The position numbers were made by a program, and so were the translations under genes. A stretch of 64,000 bases of DNA from a virus. Taxonomy: Duplodnaviria; Heunggongvirae; Uroviricota; Caudoviricetes. Shown in pieces: positions 15,927 through 64,000 of the stretch. The notes beneath the pieces were generated by a model, which ran no database searches, was not told the origin of the DNA, and saw only the letters and a program-made list of their open reading frames with translations. The number at the start of each line of letters is the position of its first letter. The first letter of the stretch is position 1. The stretch is from IMG/VR virus record IMGVR_UViG_3300022719_000284, positions 90,827 to 154,826 of that record; one strand, given 5' to 3'.

Positions 15927-18900
15927 ATGGAATCTGGGGTATTATCCTTCGACTGTAAGCAATCTCAATGCCCGGCCTACGATAGATGTGATTTGGTACC
16001 TACCCAAGTCAGGGTCATCAAAGGTACCGAACGCCCAGATGAAGTCATACTTTTCATCGGAGACTCGGTAGGAAAACACGAGTCTGCAAATAGTTTACCG
16101 TTTCAGGGCCGAGGCGGAGATCTACTTCGCAAAACCATACGTAAACTAAACGTTAGAAAACTGACTATAGCTTACACCTCCATCACTCGCTATTGGCCAA
16201 GAAATGAAAATGGCGAAAGGTGTGAACCAGATCCCGAAGCTGTATCTTCCTGCATGACACACTTGCTGCGTGATGTAGAGCATCTTAAACCTAGCAAAAT
16301 AGTAGCTCTAGGTTCCAAAGCACTCAAGATTCTGTTTCCCGACGCCCCAGGAATCTTGAAATCACGAGGCAAACATTTCGACCACCCGCAATTAGGTCAG
16401 ATCTTTGTAACTTACGATCCTGGGTTAATGCTTAAAAAGCAAAATCTCTTCTATCAGTGGGAAGCAGATTTGCAATTAATGCTCAGTAGCGACAAACTAG
16501 TATCAAAGAGTAATAAATGGTCAAAACCATACGAATGGAGACTTCTTTCTTCTGTAGATGAAATAGAAGAATATGTGGAAGAGCTTATCAACAACAAAAA
16601 ACTAAAGATAATTGCTCTAGACACAGAGACAAAAAACCTTAACGCAAGATATGACAATACACTAGGAACTCTTCAATTCTCTGAGGACGGTAAAAGGGGC
16701 ACAGTTATACCCTACCACCACCCCAAAGCGGGATGGTGGCCAGATGAGCTTAAAAGAATAGACAATGCACTGATAAAGCTTTTCACCACACCTAACCCGC
16801 CGTGGAAGTATTGGGTATTCCATAACGCTGGGTTCGATTATAGAATGATATTCAATTTTGCCTTAGGGGTCACAAATTTCAATCGACCACTAATGGACAC
16901 TGGCATGATGGCATATAGCCAGGACGAGAACAGAGGCAAGTCGGGTATAGATAAGCCCTACAGTTTAGATTCTTTGCTTAGAGACTATCTGAAAGTTGAA
17001 AAGTATGAAGACAAAGAAATTGAGCAACTAAAGAAGCAAGGAAAGTTACTAGAAATTGAAATTGATCGACTAGCTAAATACGGTGCTAGTGATTCTGTGT
17101 ACACATTTCGTCTTTTCTTCTATATTCTTGAACGAGCTAAAAGAGAGGGATATAAAGACAAGCTTCTGAAATTGTGTAAACATTGGTTTGAGCCAGTAAG
17201 TAGAATGAATTCCATTATGCAATCCAATGGGTTCTGGGTAGATGAGCACCAACTTAGGGTTCTAGGAAATAATAAAACCTCTCCCATAGTAAAGAGAATG
17301 GAAGAGATAGAAAAAGGTTGGAGAAGTAACGCTAATGCTATTGAAGCCAATAAACGCTTAGTTGAATCGAGTCTAGGTGGTAAGATGGCTTCAGCATTTG
17401 GGGGAGGAAAAGGCTCCTGGGAATTCAGCATAGACAAAATGGAGCATAAGAGGTGCTTGTTTTTTGATGTTATGAATCTAGAGCCTCTGGATTACGGAAA
17501 GGGCACCAGAATTCCTTTGGTAGAGGCCCCGGAAGGAAAAGAGGTAGCACCCACACCCGTAGGTAAATTGGATAGGGCTTTTCAAGATAGATATAGTGAT
17601 CTAGAGGAAGTAGCTTTGTATCATGAGTGGCAGGGATTAAAGAAGCTAAAAACTTCATATGTCACTAGCATTGAATCATTCCTAGACCCAAGAAACGGAA
17701 AAGAAGGTGCCAAGGATAGTCGCGTGCGTCCTACTTTCTGGGTAACTACAACCGACACCGGAAGATCTTCCTGCACCAACCCCAACCTACAACAGGTCCC
17801 TAGAGCAGATAACTGGGCTAAAAAAGAAATCAAAAACATGTTCGCTGCGGAGCCTGGGTGTGCTTTGATTCAGCTAGACTTCATGACATCAGAGGTGCGT
17901 TGGTGGGGAATTCTTGCTCAGTGTCCAGCCCTAGCAAAGGCGTTTGAGAACGGAAAAATAGCTAGGGAGGATTACAAGACCCAAAGTGAGAATTACTCAA
18001 GAAAGCACCCTAAGCTGAGGTATGAGGTAGTTATGGCTGCTGAGAAGATGATTACAGATAAGTTTGAGATGAAGAAAAACAGTGAATTAAACGAACTTAA
18101 AGGAAAATTCCCTACAAAGGCACTAAAACTAGCTTACCGTTTAATGAAAAATGATATTGAGTTTTTTAATTTGATCAAGACCAAAGTCTGGTCCAGTGTT
18201 GCTGGAGACCTCCATAAAAACACCGCTAGTCAGATGTATAGTGTACCTCTGCTAGAAGTTAACAAATCCATGCGTAACGATACAAAAGCTATTGTATTTG
18301 GTACTATGTTTGGTCGAGGACCTAAAGCTATTGCGCAACAGCTAAAAATTGCAGACATAAACGATGTACAACAAAAAATTAGAAACTTCTTTGACCAGTT
18401 TCCAGACGCGGAAGCTTGGATGTACGATTCTGAGAAATTTGGAGAACGAAATGCTTATGTGGAGAGCCCCATAGGTCGTCGTAGACGTTTGTTAACTTTT
18501 CAGATGGGGTTTGGAGACGAAGGAGAGATTGCTAGAGCCAAAAGGATCGCAAGAAATTCTCCCATCCAGGGTATATCCTCGGATGGCGCCTTCTTAGGTG
18601 CGTCCATGTTCTCAGAGTGGCTGATCGAGGAAGGTAAATGGCATGTCCACCCGGACAAAAAATGTTGGCTCCTTCAAGATGTGGTTCACGACTCCTTGGT
18701 ACTTCAGGTTCCGATTGAAGATGTGCCGGAAGCGCTACAGGCAGTCGAACCCTTTTTTTCCACCAAGCTCATGGAGCGAATGGAAAATGTATGGGACATA
18801 AATTTTAACATAGAACTCGAAGTTGATTTCGAAATAGGTCTTAAATGGGGAGATCTGGTGAGCTGGGACGGAACCAATCTACACTTAGATTACCTTATGA

Positions 18901-18947
18901 ATCAGTTACGTAAGCAAGAATCAGAAAGACAAAATAAGGCAGCTTAA
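15927..18947 (+). CDS. polA: family-A DNA polymerase with an N-terminal UDG-family-4-like domain and a 3'-5' exonuclease domain (1006 aa)
   Basis: N-terminus 'CPAYDRC...ILFIGDSVGKHE...GRGGDLL' is family-4 UDG-like. 'IALDTET' is the Exo I motif. 'LIQLDFMTSEVRW' is Pol I motif A. 'KAIVFGTMFGRG' is motif B. 'VHDSLVLQV' is motif C. Confidence 0.85.
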   Translation: MESGVLSFDCKQSQCPAYDRCDLVPTQVRVIKGTERPDEVILFIGDSVGKHESANSLPFQGRGGDLLRKTIRKLNVRKLTIAYTSITRYWPRNENGERCEPDPEAVSSCMTHLLRDVEHLKPSKIVALGSKALKILFPDAPGILKSRGKHFDHPQLGQIFVTYDPGLMLKKQNLFYQWEADLQLMLSSDKLVSKSNKWSKPYEWRLLSSVDEIEEYVEELINNKKLKIIALDTETKNLNARYDNTLGTLQFSEDGKRGTVIPYHHPKAGWWPDELKRIDNALIKLFTTPNPPWKYWVFHNAGFDYRMIFNFALGVTNFNRPLMDTGMMAYSQDENRGKSGIDKPYSLDSLLRDYLKVEKYEDKEIEQLKKQGKLLEIEIDRLAKYGASDSVYTFRLFFYILERAKREGYKDKLLKLCKHWFEPVSRMNSIMQSNGFWVDEHQLRVLGNNKTSPIVKRMEEIEKGWRSNANAIEANKRLVESSLGGKMASAFGGGKGSWEFSIDKMEHKRCLFFDVMNLEPLDYGKGTRIPLVEAPEGKEVAPTPVGKLDRAFQDRYSDLEEVALYHEWQGLKKLKTSYVTSIESFLDPRNGKEGAKDSRVRPTFWVTTTDTGRSSCTNPNLQQVPRADNWAKKEIKNMFAAEPGCALIQLDFMTSEVRWWGILAQCPALAKAFENGKIAREDYKTQSENYSRKHPKLRYEVVMAAEKMITDKFEMKKNSELNELKGKFPTKALKLAYRLMKNDIEFFNLIKTKVWSSVAGDLHKNTASQMYSVPLLEVNKSMRNDTKAIVFGTMFGRGPKAIAQQLKIADINDVQQKIRNFFDQFPDAEAWMYDSEKFGERNAYVESPIGRRRRLLTFQMGFGDEGEIARAKRIARNSPIQGISSDGAFLGASMFSEWLIEEGKWHVHPDKKCWLLQDVVHDSLVLQVPIEDVPEALQAVEPFFSTKLMERMENVWDINFNIELEVDFEIGLKWGDLVSWDGTNLHLDYLMNQLRKQESERQNKAA

Positions 18948-25529: not shown

Positions 25530-25772
25530 TTGGAAACTGAATTAACTGGACCTTTTTCTAAATCTCGACAATGGCTTTTGAATTACCTATCAACAGCTAA
25601 ATTTAGAAATGAAATTATACAAGGGTCATTAAAAGCTGATTGGTCTGAGGTGGAGCACGCACGTGCCGCCTATTTACTGGGATGTCTTTGGGGGCGTTTG
25701 AGACAAGTAGATTCTTCCCTTGAGAATGCTACTGAATATGGAGCATTAGTAATAGAGGAGCTAAATGAATAA
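25530..25772 (+). CDS. hypothetical protein (80 aa)
   Basis: ORF with 4-nt overlap to the downstream oxygenase gene. Confidence 0.3.
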   Translation: METELTGPFSKSRQWLLNYLSTAKFRNEIIQGSLKADWSEVEHARAAYLLGCLWGRLRQVDSSLENATEYGALVIEELNE

Positions 25773-26404
25773 TGCAAGACTTCATAGTTTTAGACAATTG
25801 GCTTCCAATAGGGCAAGCAGAGGAAATTGCATCCAAAATTAGCAGAATACAAAATTGGGATGTTAGAATATGTGACAAAGACGGGGGCCCAAGAGTTGTA
25901 AAAAATGAGAGTCTCAAAAGTTTGGGAATAACAGCAGAGGAGTATGCTAAAGACTATCCAGAAAGTTTGGCCCAATTAGCCCGTGGCGGAACAATGGCTT
26001 ACTTGTTCTTTGTCAAACATCTTTCTGAATTTGACCCTATCCTTCTAAATTGGTTTAATACAGAATTCTTGTCTACGGCTAATATGATTACTGAACAAGA
26101 GAATAACTATACAGAAGAGCCCCAGGTAACTATGTATTCATCTGGGTGCTTTCTTGGGCAACATAGTGATGGAGTCGGCTCTAGGCAGGTTGCCTTTATT
26201 GCAAATTTCACACGCAATTGGCAACCTGATTTTGGTGGGTGTCTTACTATTCTTACACAAGGCAAGTGGCAGGTAATACCTCCAAAATTCAATTCGATTG
26301 TTTTTATGAATGTTAGATCAGCAAATTGTCACTATGTTAGTCAAGTTTCGAGCTGGGTACAAAACAACAGAACCGCCATTACAGGGTGGATAGGTAGAAG
26401 ATAA
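25772..26404 (+). CDS. 2-oxoglutarate/Fe(II)-dependent oxygenase superfamily protein (210 aa), possibly prolyl/lysyl-hydroxylase-like
   Basis: 'GQHSDGVGSRQVAFIANF...GGCLTIL...NCHYVSQV' fits the HxD...H facial triad in a double-stranded beta-helix context. Confidence 0.55.
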   Translation: MQDFIVLDNWLPIGQAEEIASKISRIQNWDVRICDKDGGPRVVKNESLKSLGITAEEYAKDYPESLAQLARGGTMAYLFFVKHLSEFDPILLNWFNTEFLSTANMITEQENNYTEEPQVTMYSSGCFLGQHSDGVGSRQVAFIANFTRNWQPDFGGCLTILTQGKWQVIPPKFNSIVFMNVRSANCHYVSQVSSWVQNNRTAITGWIGRR

Positions 26405-26405
26405 A

Positions 26406-27101
26406 ATGCCAAAACCAAAGCAACAAAAGCGCCTCCTAGTAGGTATTGCGCTTGACAGAAGTAGCTCTATGAACAGTGTTAAAGCTGAAACCATAAGCGG
26501 AACTAACGAACAATTTTCTGCTTTACGAGATTCTGATGATGCTGAAAATACCTTTGTTGCATTCGTTACATTTAATCAAATGGTTTTTCCTGTGTTTAAC
26601 GATGGAGACATAAACAATCGAAAACCAATTCTCGTTCCATGCTCCAACCTTAAAGATATAGGGGATAATGATTACTTCCCAAGCGGTACTACTGCCATGA
26701 GAGATGGCGTTTTAGAATTGATTGAGTTTTTCGAAAATGAAGCTAAACCAATTGATGACGTATTAATTATTGTTATTTCTGACGGCATGGAAAACGCATC
26801 AAAGAGGATTTCTTCAGAAGAACTAGCTTCCAGGGTTAAAGAGCTTCAAGATGCGGGATGGAATTTTACCTATATTGGGGCTAACCAAGACCTTACCCAA
26901 GTAGCAGCAGAAACAGGAATTCATGCGGGTAATATACTTAAATGGACAGCAGATTCAGTAGGAACAAGTGAAGCACATTATACAGTTTCTAATGCTGTAC
27001 GTGCTTACACTTTAAGTCGTTCAGAATCTATTAAAAATGGTAATATGGACAGAGTTTCAACTAATTGTTTATACAGTGATTCTACTAGAGATGAAAACTA
27101 A
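26406..27101 (+). CDS. von Willebrand factor A (vWA) domain protein (231 aa)
   Basis: MIDAS-like 'LDRSSSM' (DxSxS), 'TAMRDG', 'IVISDGMENAS'. Confidence 0.6.
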   Translation: MPKPKQQKRLLVGIALDRSSSMNSVKAETISGTNEQFSALRDSDDAENTFVAFVTFNQMVFPVFNDGDINNRKPILVPCSNLKDIGDNDYFPSGTTAMRDGVLELIEFFENEAKPIDDVLIIVISDGMENASKRISSEELASRVKELQDAGWNFTYIGANQDLTQVAAETGIHAGNILKWTADSVGTSEAHYTVSNAVRAYTLSRSESIKNGNMDRVSTNCLYSDSTRDEN

Positions 27102-28417
27102 TGGAGGAATTAAGTTTAGAACAAAAAGAATGCTTTGATGCTGCTATGAGCGATCGGAATGTATTTATTTCCGGAGCCGGAGGAGTTGGAAAATCTTTCT
27201 TAGTTAATGAAATCATAAAAGAATTCAAAGCTAGAGAAAGAAATTGTAGTGTCACAGCTTCCACTGGCGTTGCAGCTCTCAACGTAGGCGGGGTTACCAT
27301 TCATTCTTTTTTAGGTACTGCAATAGCAGGGAATATAGAAGAGGCGAAAGTTAAATTAGGAACAAAAGCTCACCATTTTGCTATTGATAGGCTAAGAAGC
27401 GTACATTCTGTTATTGTTGATGAAATCTCCATGTTATCAGGAGATTATTTAACAATGATGGATTTCTGGATGCGTCAGTTAAGAGGTAACAATGAGCAGC
27501 CGTTTGGCGGATGTCAGGTAATCCTAGTAGGTGACTTTCTTCAGTTGCCTCCTGTTGAGAGAGATAGAAAGCCTCAATATCGCTATGCATTTAATTCTCC
27601 CTCATGGGAAGAAGCCAACTTCGAAACTTTTGATCTAACTAGATCATTTAGACAGCAGGACCAAACTTTCATAAATGCTTTAAATAGAATTAGATTTGGC
27701 GATTATTCCAAAGAAGTTCGAAAAGTTTTTCGTCCATGCGTTGGAAGAGAGCTGGAAGATCCAACGTTCTTGGTATCAACTAACAAGGAAGCATCGGACA
27801 TCAACGGCAGTAAGTTCATGATGCACCCTGGAGAGACATTTTCTGCAAAACCTTTGTTTTCAATGTCAGAAAATTTCAAATATGTGTTTAAGAAAAACAA
27901 AGATTTCTGGAAAGATATAAAAGGAAAACTGTCGAAAAATAGTTTAACAGATTGCCCATTAAGGTTGAAAATAGGAGTTCCTGTTCTTGTACTAAAGAAT
28001 AACAGAATTAAAGGTTACGTTAACGGACAAAGAGGCTTGGTATCTGACATTCAAGTTACACCAAACAAAGAAATTACAAGTGTTACAGTTGAGTTTCTTG
28101 ACGGAAACTCTGTTTCTATCGAAAGAGAATCTTGGGATTGGCTGGACCCTAACAGATCTGTAATGGGTACAATGCATCATTTTCCCCTAAGGCTAGGGTG
28201 GTCTATAACTATCCATAAAAGCCAAGGTCTTACGCTAGATAATGTAGAAGTGGACCTAAGTAAAGGATTTGCTGCTGGGCAAGCTTATGTAGCCCTATCT
28301 AGAATGAAGTCCCTAGAAGGTCTTGCCCTAACTGATGCAATAAACCCAGGAATAGTAAAAGCAGACAAAGAAATCATCGACTTTTATGACAAGTCTAGGA
28401 TAGCTAGAGAATCCTAA
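27101..28417 (+). CDS. Pif1/RecD-family SF1 helicase (438 aa)
   Basis: Walker A 'ISGAGGVGKS'. 'VIVDEISMLS' (motif II). 'ILVGDFLQLPPV' (Pif1 signature region). C-terminal 'SITIHKSQGLT...AYVALSRM' motifs. Confidence 0.8.
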   Translation: MEELSLEQKECFDAAMSDRNVFISGAGGVGKSFLVNEIIKEFKARERNCSVTASTGVAALNVGGVTIHSFLGTAIAGNIEEAKVKLGTKAHHFAIDRLRSVHSVIVDEISMLSGDYLTMMDFWMRQLRGNNEQPFGGCQVILVGDFLQLPPVERDRKPQYRYAFNSPSWEEANFETFDLTRSFRQQDQTFINALNRIRFGDYSKEVRKVFRPCVGRELEDPTFLVSTNKEASDINGSKFMMHPGETFSAKPLFSMSENFKYVFKKNKDFWKDIKGKLSKNSLTDCPLRLKIGVPVLVLKNNRIKGYVNGQRGLVSDIQVTPNKEITSVTVEFLDGNSVSIERESWDWLDPNRSVMGTMHHFPLRLGWSITIHKSQGLTLDNVEVDLSKGFAAGQAYVALSRMKSLEGLALTDAINPGIVKADKEIIDFYDKSRIARES

Positions 28418-28641: not shown

Positions 28642-31185
28642 TTGAGCCTGCACTGGGAGAGTTTTGTGTCGGATACCCAGAAGTGCCCCCACTGTGGAAG
28701 TGATTCACTTCAAAAACGTGGACTTACCAGATCAGAAGAACCAAAGCAGCAATATGCTTGCAATGAATGTGGACGCTGGTCTTTAATATCTATAGTTGAA
28801 TTAAAAAGTGGTCCTGAATTCTTTCTTGATAAAAAGAAAGTAGCTGAGTTAGAACGTAAAGAAAGATATTTCATAACTAGCTCACAAAATAACACTCATA
28901 TAGACAGAAATTTCTGGAAAGCCATCAAACACTATACTAAGGAAAATGGCTCAGAACTTCTAATCCTCCCTATTCGTTACAAGAATCCTACATCTTACCT
29001 TCAGCCGCAAGATGATGACGATGCTGTATGGTGGCCTGAAGAAGTTCTAGATTATCTTGTTGAAAATAAGTTAAAAATACACCCAGAACTGTGGATTATG
29101 GGGAACATGAGAATCCAAGCCACAATGGTAAACCCCCTATCTGGTTTGGAGGGCATGAGCCAGTATGCTTCTGCTATCTACGGTCACGGGCAGCTTCAGA
29201 TGAAGACAGTCCCTACTCCGCAGAATGCTCTTCCTAAGATACTTCACACTACTGGATCGTGTAGTGTTAAAAATTATAGTAAAACCAAAGCAGGAGTTAA
29301 AGGTGAGTTTCACCACTCCAAAGCCGGACTAGTTGTGGAAAAGAAAGGAAAGAAATTCCACCTTAGACAAGTCATTTGGGATGGGGAATGCTTTTACGAT
29401 TTAGATAAAAAGTACACCGCCAATGGAGTTACAAGAAACCACAGAATAGATGCCTTAGTAACCGGTGACGAACACGTTCTATTTAACGATCCGGAAGTAA
29501 AAGCTGCTACATACACTGACAATGGTTCTATAGCTAACACATTAAAACCGAAAGTTATAGTCCGTCATGATGTTTTTGACGGATACAGTATATCTCACCA
29601 TCACAGAAACAATCCAGTTACTCAATACATAAAATGGAGAGAAAACATAAACAAAGTTGAAGATGAGTTGCAAGCCACTATAAACTTCATAGAAGAAACC
29701 ACCCCCCAAAATGCAACAAACATAATAGTTTCTTCAAACCATAATGAGCATCTGTATAGATGGTTAAGAGAAGTAGATTGGAAAGCAGAGCCATGGAATG
29801 CCAAAATATATCACTGGTTTTGGTATAATATGCTAAATGAAGCTGAATTTGGGGAGTCTGGAGCTTTTACTTTCGACCCATTCGCGTATTGGGCAGAACA
29901 GAACATGGACTCTAATTGCCCCATCAAATTCCTGGGGCGCGATGAGTCTTTCGTGGTAAACAAAATTGAGTTGTCTTTGCACGGAGACCTGGGTCCAAAT
30001 GGTAGCAGGGGTTCTGCGGTCAACCTGAACAAAATTGGTATTCGGTCTGTAATCGGGCATTGCCTTACAGGAGACCACGACGTACTAACGAGATCTGGAT
30101 GGAAAAGCATAGCCGATGTTCCTTCTGGAAGTGAAATTCTTACTACAAAAGATGGTCATAACATTTGGTCTAAAACAACAGAAAAACAAGAATATCTATA
30201 TAGCGGAAAATTAGTTAACTTAAACCATTTAGGGCAGACTGTTACGCCAAATCACAGGATGGCTATGTCGGACGGATCTTTAGTTCCTGTGTGTGAAGCT
30301 ATTATGACAAGGAAAGCTAACGAGGTACCTATTTCTGCCGCTCCTTGCTCTGAAGGTATAATCTCTATACCAGAAATGCCTTTGCGAAGACTTGTAGCTG
30401 CGTGTGCTGATGGCAGCTTTTACAAAAATAGTCTGTCTTTCAACCTAAAAAAGAATCGTAAGCACGAAAGGCTGAAGTTCTTGTTCGGTGATTCCCTTCG
30501 TGACAAAGGATCTGTCAAAGGCAACGGAGCAATTCGAAGAACAGTATCTATGGGTTCTGAACCCTACAAAGAAATCATCAAGTATATAAATCCAACCACA
30601 GAATGTAAAAGACTACCTCATTGGTTTATAGACTTATCGGAAGAATGCCGATCAATAGTCATTGACGAACTAGTATACTGGGATGGCACAGGAAGAGATT
30701 GCGAAGCAGGAAAACAGTTCTCGACTTCAAAAGAGGACGAAGCTAATATAGTTGCAGCTTTGTGTACTTTACAAGGATACCGTACAATCTTCTTAGAAAG
30801 GGTAGACCACGGACGCACAGAGTATTTGGTTACTTGGACACAAGGCGAGCCAGCACACAGCACTGATCAAGAGCATGACGAAGCGCGTATAGGAGCTTGG
30901 CAGGCAAATACTATAAATGTCGAGAATGAGGCCGTATATTGTTTCACAGTTCCCGAAACCCATTGTTTTTGGGTAAGGGACAAGAAAAAGGGAAAGGTCT
31001 CGTTAACTGGAAATTCCCACAGCCCTTGTATAGAAAAGGGCGTCGTGCAAGTAGGAACCAGCTCCTACCTGAAGCTGGAGTACAACCCAGGTCCCAGCTC
31101 GTGGATGAATTCTCATTGTGTTGTATATAAGAATGGAAAACGAGCCCTACTCAACGTACTCGACGGCGGAGAATGGCGCGGGTAG
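28642..31185 (+). CDS. N-terminal Zn-ribbon plus calcineurin-like metallophosphoesterase (Mre11/SbcD-like motifs), interrupted by an intein (847 aa precursor)
   Basis: 'CPHCGS...CNECG' Zn-ribbon. Phosphoesterase motifs 'VTGDEHV', 'SSNHNEH', 'LHGDLG', and 'IGH|...|SHS' (GHxH split by the intein). Confidence 0.65.
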   Translation: MSLHWESFVSDTQKCPHCGSDSLQKRGLTRSEEPKQQYACNECGRWSLISIVELKSGPEFFLDKKKVAELERKERYFITSSQNNTHIDRNFWKAIKHYTKENGSELLILPIRYKNPTSYLQPQDDDDAVWWPEEVLDYLVENKLKIHPELWIMGNMRIQATMVNPLSGLEGMSQYASAIYGHGQLQMKTVPTPQNALPKILHTTGSCSVKNYSKTKAGVKGEFHHSKAGLVVEKKGKKFHLRQVIWDGECFYDLDKKYTANGVTRNHRIDALVTGDEHVLFNDPEVKAATYTDNGSIANTLKPKVIVRHDVFDGYSISHHHRNNPVTQYIKWRENINKVEDELQATINFIEETTPQNATNIIVSSNHNEHLYRWLREVDWKAEPWNAKIYHWFWYNMLNEAEFGESGAFTFDPFAYWAEQNMDSNCPIKFLGRDESFVVNKIELSLHGDLGPNGSRGSAVNLNKIGIRSVIGHCLTGDHDVLTRSGWKSIADVPSGSEILTTKDGHNIWSKTTEKQEYLYSGKLVNLNHLGQTVTPNHRMAMSDGSLVPVCEAIMTRKANEVPISAAPCSEGIISIPEMPLRRLVAACADGSFYKNSLSFNLKKNRKHERLKFLFGDSLRDKGSVKGNGAIRRTVSMGSEPYKEIIKYINPTTECKRLPHWFIDLSEECRSIVIDELVYWDGTGRDCEAGKQFSTSKEDEANIVAALCTLQGYRTIFLERVDHGRTEYLVTWTQGEPAHSTDQEHDEARIGAWQANTINVENEAVYCFTVPETHCFWVRDKKKGKVSLTGNSHSPCIEKGVVQVGTSSYLKLEYNPGPSSWMNSHCVVYKNGKRALLNVLDGGEWRG
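30061..31014 (+). mobile_element. intein (about 318 aa) inserted in the GHxH phosphoesterase motif; likely contains a homing-endonuclease domain
   Basis: Block A 'CLTGDHDVLT'. Block B 'GQTVTPNHRM'. Block F 'VYCFTVPETHCFWV'. Block G '...LTGN' followed by a +1 Ser. The flanks rejoin as 'SVIGH-SHSPC', i.e. GHSH. Confidence 0.65.
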
Positions 31186-33576: not shown

Positions 33577-33733
33577 AGAAGCTTCCCAAGACAGCCCATT
33601 TATCGTCTTGGATCTCCTCCAAAGTCATTCCTGAGGCATTTAGACTCTTTTGTACTTGAATAGGATCAAACCCCTCATAACCGACCCAAAGTAAAGTTTT
33701 ATCATTTTTAATTTTAGTTATCATCAATGCCAT
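33539..33733 (-). CDS. small hypothetical protein (64 aa)
   Basis: TGATG-coupled to the HNH gene (overlap at 33733). Confidence 0.3.
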   Translation of the reverse strand: MALMITKIKNDKTLLWVGYEGFDPIQVQKSLNASGMTLEEIQDDKWAVLGSFYGKQNIQESNDG

Positions 33734-34191
33734 TAAATTTTCTCCACATTAGGGTATTTGTTTCTTATATGATCTTCTATAATTTTTCTAGTGTAATGGG
33801 CCATAGACATACCTCTATCTCTGGCTATTAATTGAAGAGCATCTCTATAGGTTTTATTTAGTTTTAAACCTATTCCTATTTCCCTGTCGGGATTTGCTTG
33901 AGCCCTATCTCTTTCAAGGAGACCGCTTTTCACAACTAATTGGGCCAACTCCATGCATCTTTTTTGGGATGAACCATCAATAAACATTTGTTGAACTGAG
34001 CTTCTTACTTCCCCAACTCTTTTAGGGTTTCTCATCATTCTAGCGATAACGTGCATATCTTGGTGACACCCGGAGCAAAGACTAACTAAATTAGCAGGAT
34101 CATCCGATCCTCCAAGAGACTTTGGTATTTTATGGTGTTTATTCACAAAATCCAAAGGCTTCTCAGATTCACAAATGTAACATCTAAACAT
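33733..34191 (-). CDS. HNH endonuclease (152 aa)
   Basis: 'CYICESEKPLDFVNKHHKIPKSLGGSDDPANLVSLCSGCHQDMH' is an HNH/Zn-finger signature. Confidence 0.75.
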   Translation of the reverse strand: MFRCYICESEKPLDFVNKHHKIPKSLGGSDDPANLVSLCSGCHQDMHVIARMMRNPKRVGEVRSSVQQMFIDGSSQKRCMELAQLVVKSGLLERDRAQANPDREIGIGLKLNKTYRDALQLIARDRGMSMAHYTRKIIEDHIRNKYPNVEKI

Positions 34192-46038: not shown

Positions 46039-49613
<3,575 letters not shown>

Positions 49614-49614
<1 letters not shown>

Positions 49615-50177
49615 TAGATTCTCCAGTTAAGACGAGCAGCTATGCTCCCTAATCTAATCCATGTTATTTCTTCTGTTTTTGAGGAAAATCTAATCTTGTT
49701 AAAATTAAGTTCAATACCTTCAAATTCGTCAGAGCCGGAATAAGTCTTACCCTCTCCCGGATTCACATAGGCTATTGTTATATGAGGCTGATATTCAGGA
49801 AATTTATCTTCATTTTCTAAATTGTCTTTTAGTTTGTTGTGTATCCTATGTAGGTCTTTTGATTTGACATCTATTTTTACCACATCATAATCTTCATTCT
49901 CAAAAAGAGATATTTTCCCTAGAGTAGCTTTTATAGGGCTTTCACCTTGAAGAATTTTTCTCACAGGATCTGGATCTTCATCTACCAATCCGTAAAGAAC
50001 TGTGCAATGAATTGTATCTTCTCGACCCATAGAATCGTCTTCCGGGTCTTCATAAAGCTTGCTATCAGGTATATTTTTCTTGCCCCATTCTATAATATTT
50101 TTAGCGACATTCTCCGGTAAATTAACCTGAGTTGATGCATAGCTATAGTCTGCTGTCACGTCCCAGTTAAATACCAT
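49614..50177 (-). CDS. 2H phosphoesterase superfamily protein (LigT / 2',3'-cyclic phosphodiesterase-like; 187 aa)
   Basis: Two H-x-T/S-x motifs ('IHCTVLYG' and 'PHITIAYV') at the spacing typical of the 2H fold. Confidence 0.55.
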
Positions 50178-58421: not shown

Positions 58422-60682
<2,261 letters not shown>

Positions 60683-60683
<1 letters not shown>

Positions 60684-61015
60684 TAGTTACCTTCTCTCGC
60701 TTCTCTAACATCCCAAGCTGCAACATTCTGGATTACCTCTACCTTGAACCCAAATAAAGCTGATACTGCATAACAATGAGCTAGAAATTGCTTAGTATTT
60801 AACCAAGGCTGTTTAGGAACAGAAAAAGCTTCTTTAGAATGTCTAAGCATGTTAGTTGGACCGCTAACAATTACACTAGGTCTGATAGGGTGGGCGTCAG
60901 CAGTCCTGAGTGCTGATCCAAGATTACCTACTACTTCGCTAACTCTAGTAGCTTTAACAGGCAGGTGTACAACAACCATGTACCGTTTTGATGGTTCCAT
61001 TAGTAAATATTCCAT
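60683..61015 (-). CDS. hypothetical protein (110 aa)
   Basis: ATGA-coupled ORF. Confidence 0.35.
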
Positions 61016-61040
61016 TTACTAGTTAAGTTAATAACTCTTA

Positions 61041-64000
<2,960 letters not shown>

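Follow-up and report, generated by a model that had tools for sequence, protein, structure and literature searches.

Background

Which element separates the two halves of the last catalytic motif in a phage metallophosphoesterase, and what enzyme does the interrupted gene encode? The locus that raises this question lies in a stretch of 64,000 nucleotides (hereafter, the window) from a virus of the Caudoviricetes (IMG/VR record IMGVR_UViG_3300022719_000284, positions 90,827 to 154,826), where an intact and uninterrupted open reading frame (ORF; 28642..31185, + strand) carries an insert of 318 amino acids (aa). An initial interpretation, made from the letters alone (the sequence-only reading), had described this insert as an intein that splits the final GHxH motif of a Zn-ribbon metallophosphoesterase, and had called the host Mre11/SbcD-like. 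We analyzed the ORF by comparison with related alleles, profile searches, and structure prediction, and assign a probability of about 0.88 to the reading that it encodes a T5 A1-like precursor, split at motif V by a mobile class 1 intein that carries an endonuclease of the two-motif LAGLIDADG type.

Comparison with intein-less alleles

Homologues were retrieved by a search of 5.8 billion proteins, which returned 1042 sequences, and the best 120 were compared. The majority of these are approximately 520 aa long and match the two flanks of the insert only. In nine intein-less homologues (extein 47–77% identical) the alignment gap comprises exactly aa 474–791 (847-aa numbering), and the site reads as an uninterrupted GH[STAG]H. 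The nearest of these alleles (P0004–P0007, P0009, and P0013; extein 71–77% identical) have GH[STA]H across the site, with GHSHSP in P0004, P0009, and P0013, and the corresponding intein-less site of relative L003 reads GGAATTCGGTCCATAATAGGTCATTCACATAGTCCCTGCATTGAAAAGGG. In a collection of 50,697 phage genomes, 1166 records match the extein, all of them to the flanks alone and as two pieces. Since the gap in related alleles spans exactly the 318 residues, the insert is a residue-exact presence/absence polymorphism. The extent given by the sequence-only reading, together with its blocks A, B, F, and G, agrees with this result, as does the claim that the insertion lies exactly between G-H and S-H; the check that it had proposed against intein-less alleles in relatives came out in its favor, as nine of them lack precisely these residues.

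The intein and its endonuclease

The intein runs from Cys1 to Asn318 (30061..31014, + strand), as delimited by the exact gap, the structural model, and homology, and its splice junctions are ...GIRSVIGH / CLTGDHDVLT ... KVSLTGN / SHSPCIEKG (slashes mark the junctions). Block A (CLTGDHDVLT) forms the N-terminus from position 30061, block B (VTPNH, 30241..30255) contains Thr B:7 (T62) and His B:10 (H65), and blocks F and G occupy 30934..31014, with block F corresponding to VYCFTVPETHCFWV and block G to VSLTGN/S; their key residues, in the nomenclature of PMC4031507, are Cys F:4 (C294), His F:13 (H300), Thr G:5, Gly G:6, and Asn G:7 (N318). All the residues of a class 1 intein (Cys1, Thr B:7, His B:10, the C-terminal Asn, and Ser+1) are thus present. 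Across the ten homologous inteins found in A1-like hosts, block B, C1, T62, H65, C294, N318, and Thr G:5 are invariant, and all ten have Ser at +1.

The sequence-only reading had noted that the insert leaves room for a homing endonuclease, and one of the two-motif LAGLIDADG type was found there. The first motif (LRRLVAACADGSF, 30382..30420, + strand) contains the catalytic Asp D117 within an invariant A116-D117-G118, and the second (IVIDELVYWDGTG, 30655..30693, + strand) contains the catalytic Asp D208 within an invariant W207-D208-G209, while a basic KK.RK block is likewise invariant in the ten sequences. The AlphaFold2 (AF2) model built from these inteins reached a predicted local distance difference test (pLDDT) score of 87.6 and a predicted template modeling (pTM) score of 0.87. 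In a Foldseek search its best 15 PDB matches were all endonuclease-bearing inteins (E 2e−16 to 4e−9), led by TliVMA (E 2e−16), PhoVMA, PI-SceI, and PI-PfuI (E 2e−16 to 2e−10), which identifies the HINT fold and contradicts a native insertion domain lacking that fold, the outcome that the sequence-only reading had named as a refutation. The central domain resembles the endonuclease domains of PI-SceI and PI-PfuI and the monomeric LAGLIDADG enzymes I-DmoI (E 5e−5) and I-Tsp061I, so that two motifs, each with its catalytic Asp, occur together with a pseudo-dimer fold match.

At the sequence level, residues 1–318 align end to end with inteins of isolated phages in tblastn searches (25–27% identity, E 1e−8 to 3e−13), these being the mycobacteriophage “intein-containing topoisomerase primase” and its TOPRIM relatives, a nucleotidyltransferase, PhoH, and NAMPT. 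The intein of the Bethlehem recombination directionality factor (RDF), a phosphoesterase, also aligns over the full length (22% identity, E 1e−9). The best match in an isolate (E 3e−13) is gp188 of Escherichia phage JEP1 (MT740314, JEP1_188, L001 2968–4524), a “hypothetical protein” with an unannotated intein (...LNAPP/CCVPSG...FLTGN/SGKDH...) that apparently splits the P-loop-like motif of a small protein.

In a comparison of the window with the nearest relative that carries the intein (L005; inteins 70% identical), the endonuclease region shows a nonsynonymous divergence (dN) of 0.26 and a synonymous divergence (dS) that is saturated, so that dN/dS is not quantifiable; a dN of this size beside a saturated dS indicates that the region is, as far as substitutions tell, still under constraint. 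Altogether, the element is a real and probably active class 1 LAGLIDADG intein with a homing endonuclease, and the residue-exact gap, the model, and the motifs agree with the proposal that an intein splits the final GHxH of a Zn-ribbon metallophosphoesterase.

From these conserved residues, a conventional splicing route may be proposed, in which Cys1 would form a thioester at the N-terminal junction, Ser+1 would then accept the N-extein, cyclization of Asn318 would release the intein, and an O-to-N acyl shift would rejoin GHSH in a mature enzyme of 521 aa. During co-infection, the freed 318-aa intein endonuclease would cut intein-less alleles around GGN-CAY-TCN-CAY-AGY-CC, and recombinational repair templated by the intein-bearing allele would copy the element in. 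Splicing, endonuclease activity, and the nuclease function of the host are all inferred functions.

The host protein

Counted from TTG 28642, the complete ORF (+ strand) has 847 codons and ends with TAG. This TTG comes directly after a TAA. A GTG at 28666 is preceded by a Shine-Dalgarno sequence (GGGAGA, 5 nt upstream), the identical database protein P0002 (839 aa) begins at this GTG in SRR23862439 and in SRR23862438, which were assembled independently, and the closest homologues share the same start position in the alignment. Owing to the Shine-Dalgarno sequence, the database gene calls, and the homologue starts, GTG 28666 is preferred over TTG 28642 as the likelier true start, which would give an 839-aa precursor.

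The N-extein (28666..30060, + strand) comprises a zinc ribbon, an A1-specific N-terminal region, four metallophosphoesterase motifs, and the first half of motif V. The motifs are GDEH (29464–29475), RHDVFDG (29563–29583), SSNHNEH (29731–29751), and LHGD (29977–29988), and the N-extein closes with IGH (30052–30060). The C-extein (31015..31182, + strand) provides Ser+1, the second His of motif V (SHSPCIEKG...), and, according to the alignment, a conserved C-terminal beta region. Five calcineurin-like motifs (GDEH, HDVFDG, SNHNE, HGD, and GH/SH) therefore occur in the order typical of the superfamily, and D268, H270, D302, N358, H359, H439, H465, and H467 (spliced numbering) show no variation among 69 homologues. 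The model of the spliced protein, built on the same number of homologues (pLDDT 93.2), has the beta-alpha-beta-alpha-beta sandwich expected of such a host.

The N-terminal zinc ribbon has four cysteines (CPHC...CNEC, aa 15–43; 28684..28770, + strand), which are conserved in the alignment, and forms three short strands in the model. It matched the N-terminal Zn-binding domains of IS1/IS1595 and IS256 in NCBIfam (E 6e−6, just below the cutoff) and Zn_ribbon_IS1595 in Pfam (E 0.0013–0.0024). It is present in the closest homologues and absent from T5 A1.

The flanks belong to phrog_1745 (“DNA transfer protein”, the T5 A1 family) in PHROGs, with an E-value of 7e−134 over profile positions 79–486 of 542. 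By BLASTP, the spliced protein is 31% identical to T5 A1 (YP_006832) over approximately 455 residues (E 2e−59), with GHSHSP opposite GHTHTA. The Mre11/SbcD-like label of the sequence-only reading is therefore appropriate at the level of fold and fails at the level of family, where the protein is T5 A1-like and no significant sequence match to Mre11/SbcD was obtained. Mre11/SbcD and PolD DP1 were considered as candidate identities and rejected, as their scores were no better than those of generic phosphodiesterases (MJ0936 12.7, YfcE 12.5) and the likeness is restricted to the fold. No SbcC/Rad50 partner was found among ten large ORFs scanned in the window, and a PDB sequence search with the extein returned nothing useful.

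In this superfamily, motif V supplies one histidine ligand to each metal of the pair (e.g., His206 and His208 of Mre11). As the intein parts these two metal-ligand histidines, the unspliced precursor should be inactive. The host is a two-metal calcineurin-type phosphoesterase of the T5 A1-like kind, and by homology it is most likely a DNase that acts on DNA of the infected cell or from elsewhere. T5 A1 itself is essential, and both necessary and sufficient for degradation of the host chromosome (bioRxiv 10.64898/2026.04.02.716235). The suggestion that the interrupted protein is essential is thus plausible, whereas the role in recombination proposed along with it does not fit, since A1 has been documented in host-DNA degradation and second-step DNA transfer, not in recombination (bioRxiv 10.64898/2026.04.02.716235).

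Distribution, mobility, and insertion registers

A homologous intein was present in 10 of the 120 best A1-like homologues, and the genes that carry it have unrelated neighbors, such as terminase together with gp32, or a giant polyvalent protein. An exhaustive search with the intein profile in 1.84 billion representative proteins (E ≤ 1e−3) gave 9,785 matches, 86 of them at E ≤ 1e−30, and the best 13 were all A1-like hosts. The best 150 proteins included 98 full-length intein matches, and in 45 of these the intein adjoins or splits phosphoesterase motif V (GH/xH or GHxH/), also in hosts that are not A1-like; when spliced in silico, seven of the eight non-A1-like hosts tested passed the Pfam Metallophos threshold. 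With these 45 of 98 cases, the GHxH motif is, by the context of the matches, a frequent target of this intein lineage across several phosphoesterase families. Together with 37 RDF cases already published (PMC5050341), the metagenomic matches indicate that the sequence-only reading overstated the point in calling a phosphoesterase host unusual. The non-A1 GHxH hosts, which include P0134, P0138–P0142, P0145, P0148–P0150, P0155, P0159, P0185, P0190, and P0196, are mostly small, with mature proteins of approximately 180–400 aa.

Two insertion registers were distinguished. The register GH/C...N/(S/T/C)H was seen in 24 cases, including the window, P0003, P0008, P0019, P0125, and P0133, and the register GHxH/C...N/S in 21, including P0021–23, P0027, P0122–124, and P0100. 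They are two codons apart, and both restore a mature GHxHSP, with His at −1 and a nucleophile at +1. In a neighbor-joining tree of the inteins, which is crude and carries no support values, the registers are interleaved. Inteins of different register can be more alike than their exteins, as in P0100 (GHxH/) and P0125 (GH/xH), with 62% identity between the inteins and 44% between the exteins, or in P0124 and P0008, with 53% and 36%, respectively. This discordance suggests horizontal transfer with repeated change of register, and the comparison of homologues as a whole shows a sporadic, evidently horizontally transferred distribution of the intein. Extein switching through a shared catalytic motif has been described for actinophage inteins (bioRxiv 10.1101/2025.01.02.630785). 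We see about an even chance that one lineage of LAGLIDADG inteins has used GHxH as a recurrent landing pad, not described before, in at least three phosphoesterase families (A1-like, small phage ones of ~180–270 aa, and larger ones of ~360–400 aa) with repeated register switching.

No isolate or complete phage genome with a GHxH-site intein was found among the 50,697 deposited phage genomes. One match, from a Lak megaphage, was at first taken for a phosphoesterase-hosted intein and was rejected when it proved to be a ClpX Walker-B intein. It lies in Prevotella phage Lak-A1 (L011, MK250016, ~83540–84784), where an unannotated intein (IVFLDE/CFDGNT...VTVTGN/CDKIARK) occupies the Walker B region of a ClpX-like gene. 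Other metagenomic hosts of the lineage (P0135, P0136, P0137, P0141, P0143, and P0146) included family A DNA polymerases with two inteins each and a small subunit of ribonucleotide reductase (ESLH/C...GN/S).

Counter-evidence and alternative explanations

Several observations weigh against the reading of the ORF as a T5 A1-like precursor with a mobile class 1 intein. The Pfam Hint and LAGLIDADG profiles, to which the sequence-only reading had pointed for verification, did not help: Pfam-A searches with the whole protein and with the intein alone gave no Hint, Intein_splicing, or LAGLIDADG match even at E ≤ 10, and a PDB sequence search with the intein found nothing. In NCBIfam a model of an intein-containing radical SAM protein matched below threshold (E 0.068), and a word-indexed protein search with the intein alone gave a single match. 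As the Pfam and PDB sequence searches were blank, the intein is identified through its homologues, through relatives in the literature, and through fold prediction. The host is equally inconspicuous, with no Metallophos match in Pfam-A even at E ≤ 10, spliced extein included, and just weak zinc-ribbon matches. Biochemical activity is unproven for the A1 family, and A1 orthologues of jumbo phages have been suggested to act as cyclic-nucleotide phosphodiesterases (PMC7824862). Within the intein, the block F His (H300) is variable across the family, and the penultimate residue is Gly and not the canonical His. Penultimate Gly is frequent in phage inteins, however, and in the Bethlehem RDF intein, which spliced rapidly in a reporter, Gly outperforms His (PMC5050341). 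As to mobility, the guanine-cytosine (GC) content of the intein tracks that of the extein in every host examined (0.418 vs 0.416 in the window). With intein and extein GC equal, the resident copies, including that of the window, are by composition old, and recent homing in this phage is not demonstrated.

The same agreement in GC content would be expected if the intein still splices while its endonuclease is dead, as a fixed passenger that is inherited vertically, a possibility that we regard as unlikely but worth keeping in view. The divergence of intein and extein is indeed correlated (r 0.80), and between the window and P0003 the inteins are 70% and the exteins 75% identical, as co-inheritance predicts. 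A passenger of this kind does not, however, explain why both LAGLIDADG aspartates and the KK.RK block have stayed invariant in ten sequences, or why the endonuclease region has a dN of only 0.26 against a saturated dS; in addition, the equally close alleles P0004–P0007 lack the intein, which implies ongoing gain or loss, and in more distant pairs the inteins exceed the exteins in similarity. It is also improbable that the phage has turned the intein into a post-translational switch, by which a toxic nuclease would be kept off until splicing and gated, for example, by redox state (Cys1, Cys294) or metal ions. The host would suit such control, as expression of T5 A1 in E. coli is toxic and by itself leads to degradation of the chromosome (bioRxiv 10.64898/2026.04.02.716235), insertion at this point destroys the dinuclear metal site of the precursor, and the splicing center contains the invariant C1 and C294 (F:4), while redox-controlled splicing is known from other inteins (PMC6195587). 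Yet close relatives function without an intein, selfish inteins generally insert in catalytic motifs, and the related RDF intein, with its penultimate Gly, splices fast and constitutively (PMC5050341).

The splicing route itself could be read differently, with C294 of block F, and not Cys1, attacking the N-terminal junction first. A class 3 intein is suggested by Cys F:4 and Thr G:5, two of the three WCT residues, which are invariant in all ten A1-hosted inteins, and a phage origin is thought likely for class 3 (PMC4031507, PMC5050341). We nonetheless rejected this candidate and consider it very improbable, as class 3 inteins are without an N-terminal nucleophile and here Cys1 is invariant, B:12 is Met or Leu instead of Trp, and at F:4 Cys ranks second in frequency among inteins in general (PMC4031507); the Bethlehem RDF intein, with an equal C/T/G pattern, is assigned to class 1 (PMC5050341). 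Almost no weight is left for a native, non-splicing insertion domain or for an ORF created by fusion or misassembly. The failure of Pfam and NCBIfam to recognize the intein at their thresholds would fit such an origin, which is contradicted by an insertion that is residue-exact relative to alleles 74–77% identical, by the confident prediction of a HINT and LAGLIDADG fold, by the presence of every splice-junction residue, by the separation of two invariant metal ligands that an unspliced insert would cause, and by the independent assembly of the same sequence from two read sets. The T5 A1-like precursor with a mobile class 1 LAGLIDADG intein thus remains the preferred interpretation.

Comparison with known systems

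The closest published parallel is the intein of 37 mycobacteriophage RDF metallophosphoesterases of cluster A1 (PMC5050341), represented by Bethlehem (gp51; “phosphoesterase” gp52 in GenBank). Like the element of the window, it is a class 1 intein of approximately 317 aa with a two-motif LAGLIDADG endonuclease, resides in a phage calcineurin-like metallophosphoesterase, adjoins an invariant catalytic motif, and has Cys1, Cys F:4, and an ...LTGN/S end with penultimate Gly; both are, by these shared features, members of one broad lineage. Unlike in the window, splicing of the RDF intein was shown experimentally, and its host is a Bxb1 gp47-type recombination directionality factor of approximately 255 aa with neither a zinc ribbon nor homology to A1. 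The insertion sites differ as well, as the RDF intein follows motif III (GNHD/C) in actinophages, whereas that of the window lies inside motif V (GH/SH).

T5 A1 resembles the spliced extein in the conservation of all five phosphoesterase motifs, with its GHTH aligned to GHSH, but lacks both an intein and an N-terminal zinc ribbon, and its gene is located in the pre-early first-step-transfer region, whereas the gene of the window ends a replication module. Among solved structures, TliVMA and PhoVMA (7qsu, 7qss, 7qst), PI-SceI (1vde), and PI-PfuI (1dq3) share the arrangement of a HINT domain interrupted by a LAGLIDADG endonuclease, with template modeling (TM) scores of ~0.55–0.62 on the query at just 10–16% identity. 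They are longer (360–454 aa, compared to 318 aa), and the intein of the window differs in its penultimate Gly and Cys F:4; given its smaller size, the additional DNA-recognition region of PI-SceI is probably missing from it. The inteins of the mycobacteriophage TOPRIM primase and nucleotidyltransferase, Acinetobacter phage PhoH, Staphylococcus phage NAMPT, and JEP1 gp188 have the same C...[LV]TGN/S ends but occupy other hosts and motifs, none of them A1-like or at a GHxH site. The literature, of which our coverage was incomplete, yielded no description of an intein that interrupts an A1-like protein or a GHxH motif, so that this is absence of evidence only. The host and the insertion site thus appear not to have been described before, while the element itself is of an ordinary kind and involves no new mechanism.

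Genomic context

The A1-like gene is the last in a block on the + strand that encodes a family A DNA polymerase, ThyX, methyltransferase-like and glycosyltransferase-like proteins, a 2OG-Fe(II) oxygenase, phrog_7371, and a PIF1/Dda-like helicase, and the coding strand switches right after it. It thus closes the replication module, with the helicase next to it, and the order helicase to A1-like gene is kept both in L005, a relative with the intein, and in L003 (a 184-kb contig), which has none. Upstream, the region 25772–28417 shares with L003, L005, and L009 the succession of 2OG-Fe(II) oxygenase, phrog_7371 (231 aa, VWA-like by eye), and helicase (438 aa). The conserved pairing hints at a possible functional helicase-nuclease pair.

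A megablast search of the gene against the 50,697 phage genomes gave no match, and hence the phage has no close sequenced relative in this collection; its DNA polymerase is at most ~26% identical to polymerases of isolated phages. This polymerase (15927–18947, + strand; 1006 aa, phrog_17) resembles a gene of relative L005 (1–756) with Pfam UDG, PolA exonuclease, and PolA domains, and would on this analogy be a family A enzyme with an N-terminal uracil-DNA-glycosylase-like domain. No second copy of the intein was detected in the window with an intein-family hidden Markov model (HMM) run on six-frame ORFs. Approximately 2.5 kb downstream of the A1-like gene, a 152-aa ORF (33733–34191, − strand) corresponds to a gene with Pfam HNH/HNH_5 matches in L009 and L010, a free-standing HNH endonuclease. 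The local GC content peaks at 0.50–0.56 in 47000–50000 and 60000–64000, compared to a background of ~0.42; the first peak falls inside a 1191-aa ORF (46039–49614, − strand) with long overlapping ORFs on the + strand, which suggests a repetitive or compositionally odd coding sequence.

Conclusions

With one exception, a zinc-finger match, the approximately 120 A1-like homologues listed have no precomputed Pfam domain, and the protein of the window has none either; they are unnamed or called “hypothetical”. Standard pipelines would give this family the label “hypothetical protein” and overlook the intein. Recognition of the intein leads to the correct mature protein of 521 aa, and the main value of the finding lies in this correction to the annotation of a widespread phage family that is invisible to Pfam. 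The occurrence of one lineage in the GHxH of several families, in two registers, makes a compact natural case of extein switching, and if the landing pad proves true, these cases would form a natural series for the study of both extein switching and the positional slack of intein homing. An intein with Ser+1 and His−1 that holds a toxic DNase inactive until splicing could also serve conditional nuclease expression. For the phages themselves, the intein would mark the A1-like enzyme as the product of a gene that is hard to lose or to mutate at motif V, in keeping with T5 A1 being essential.

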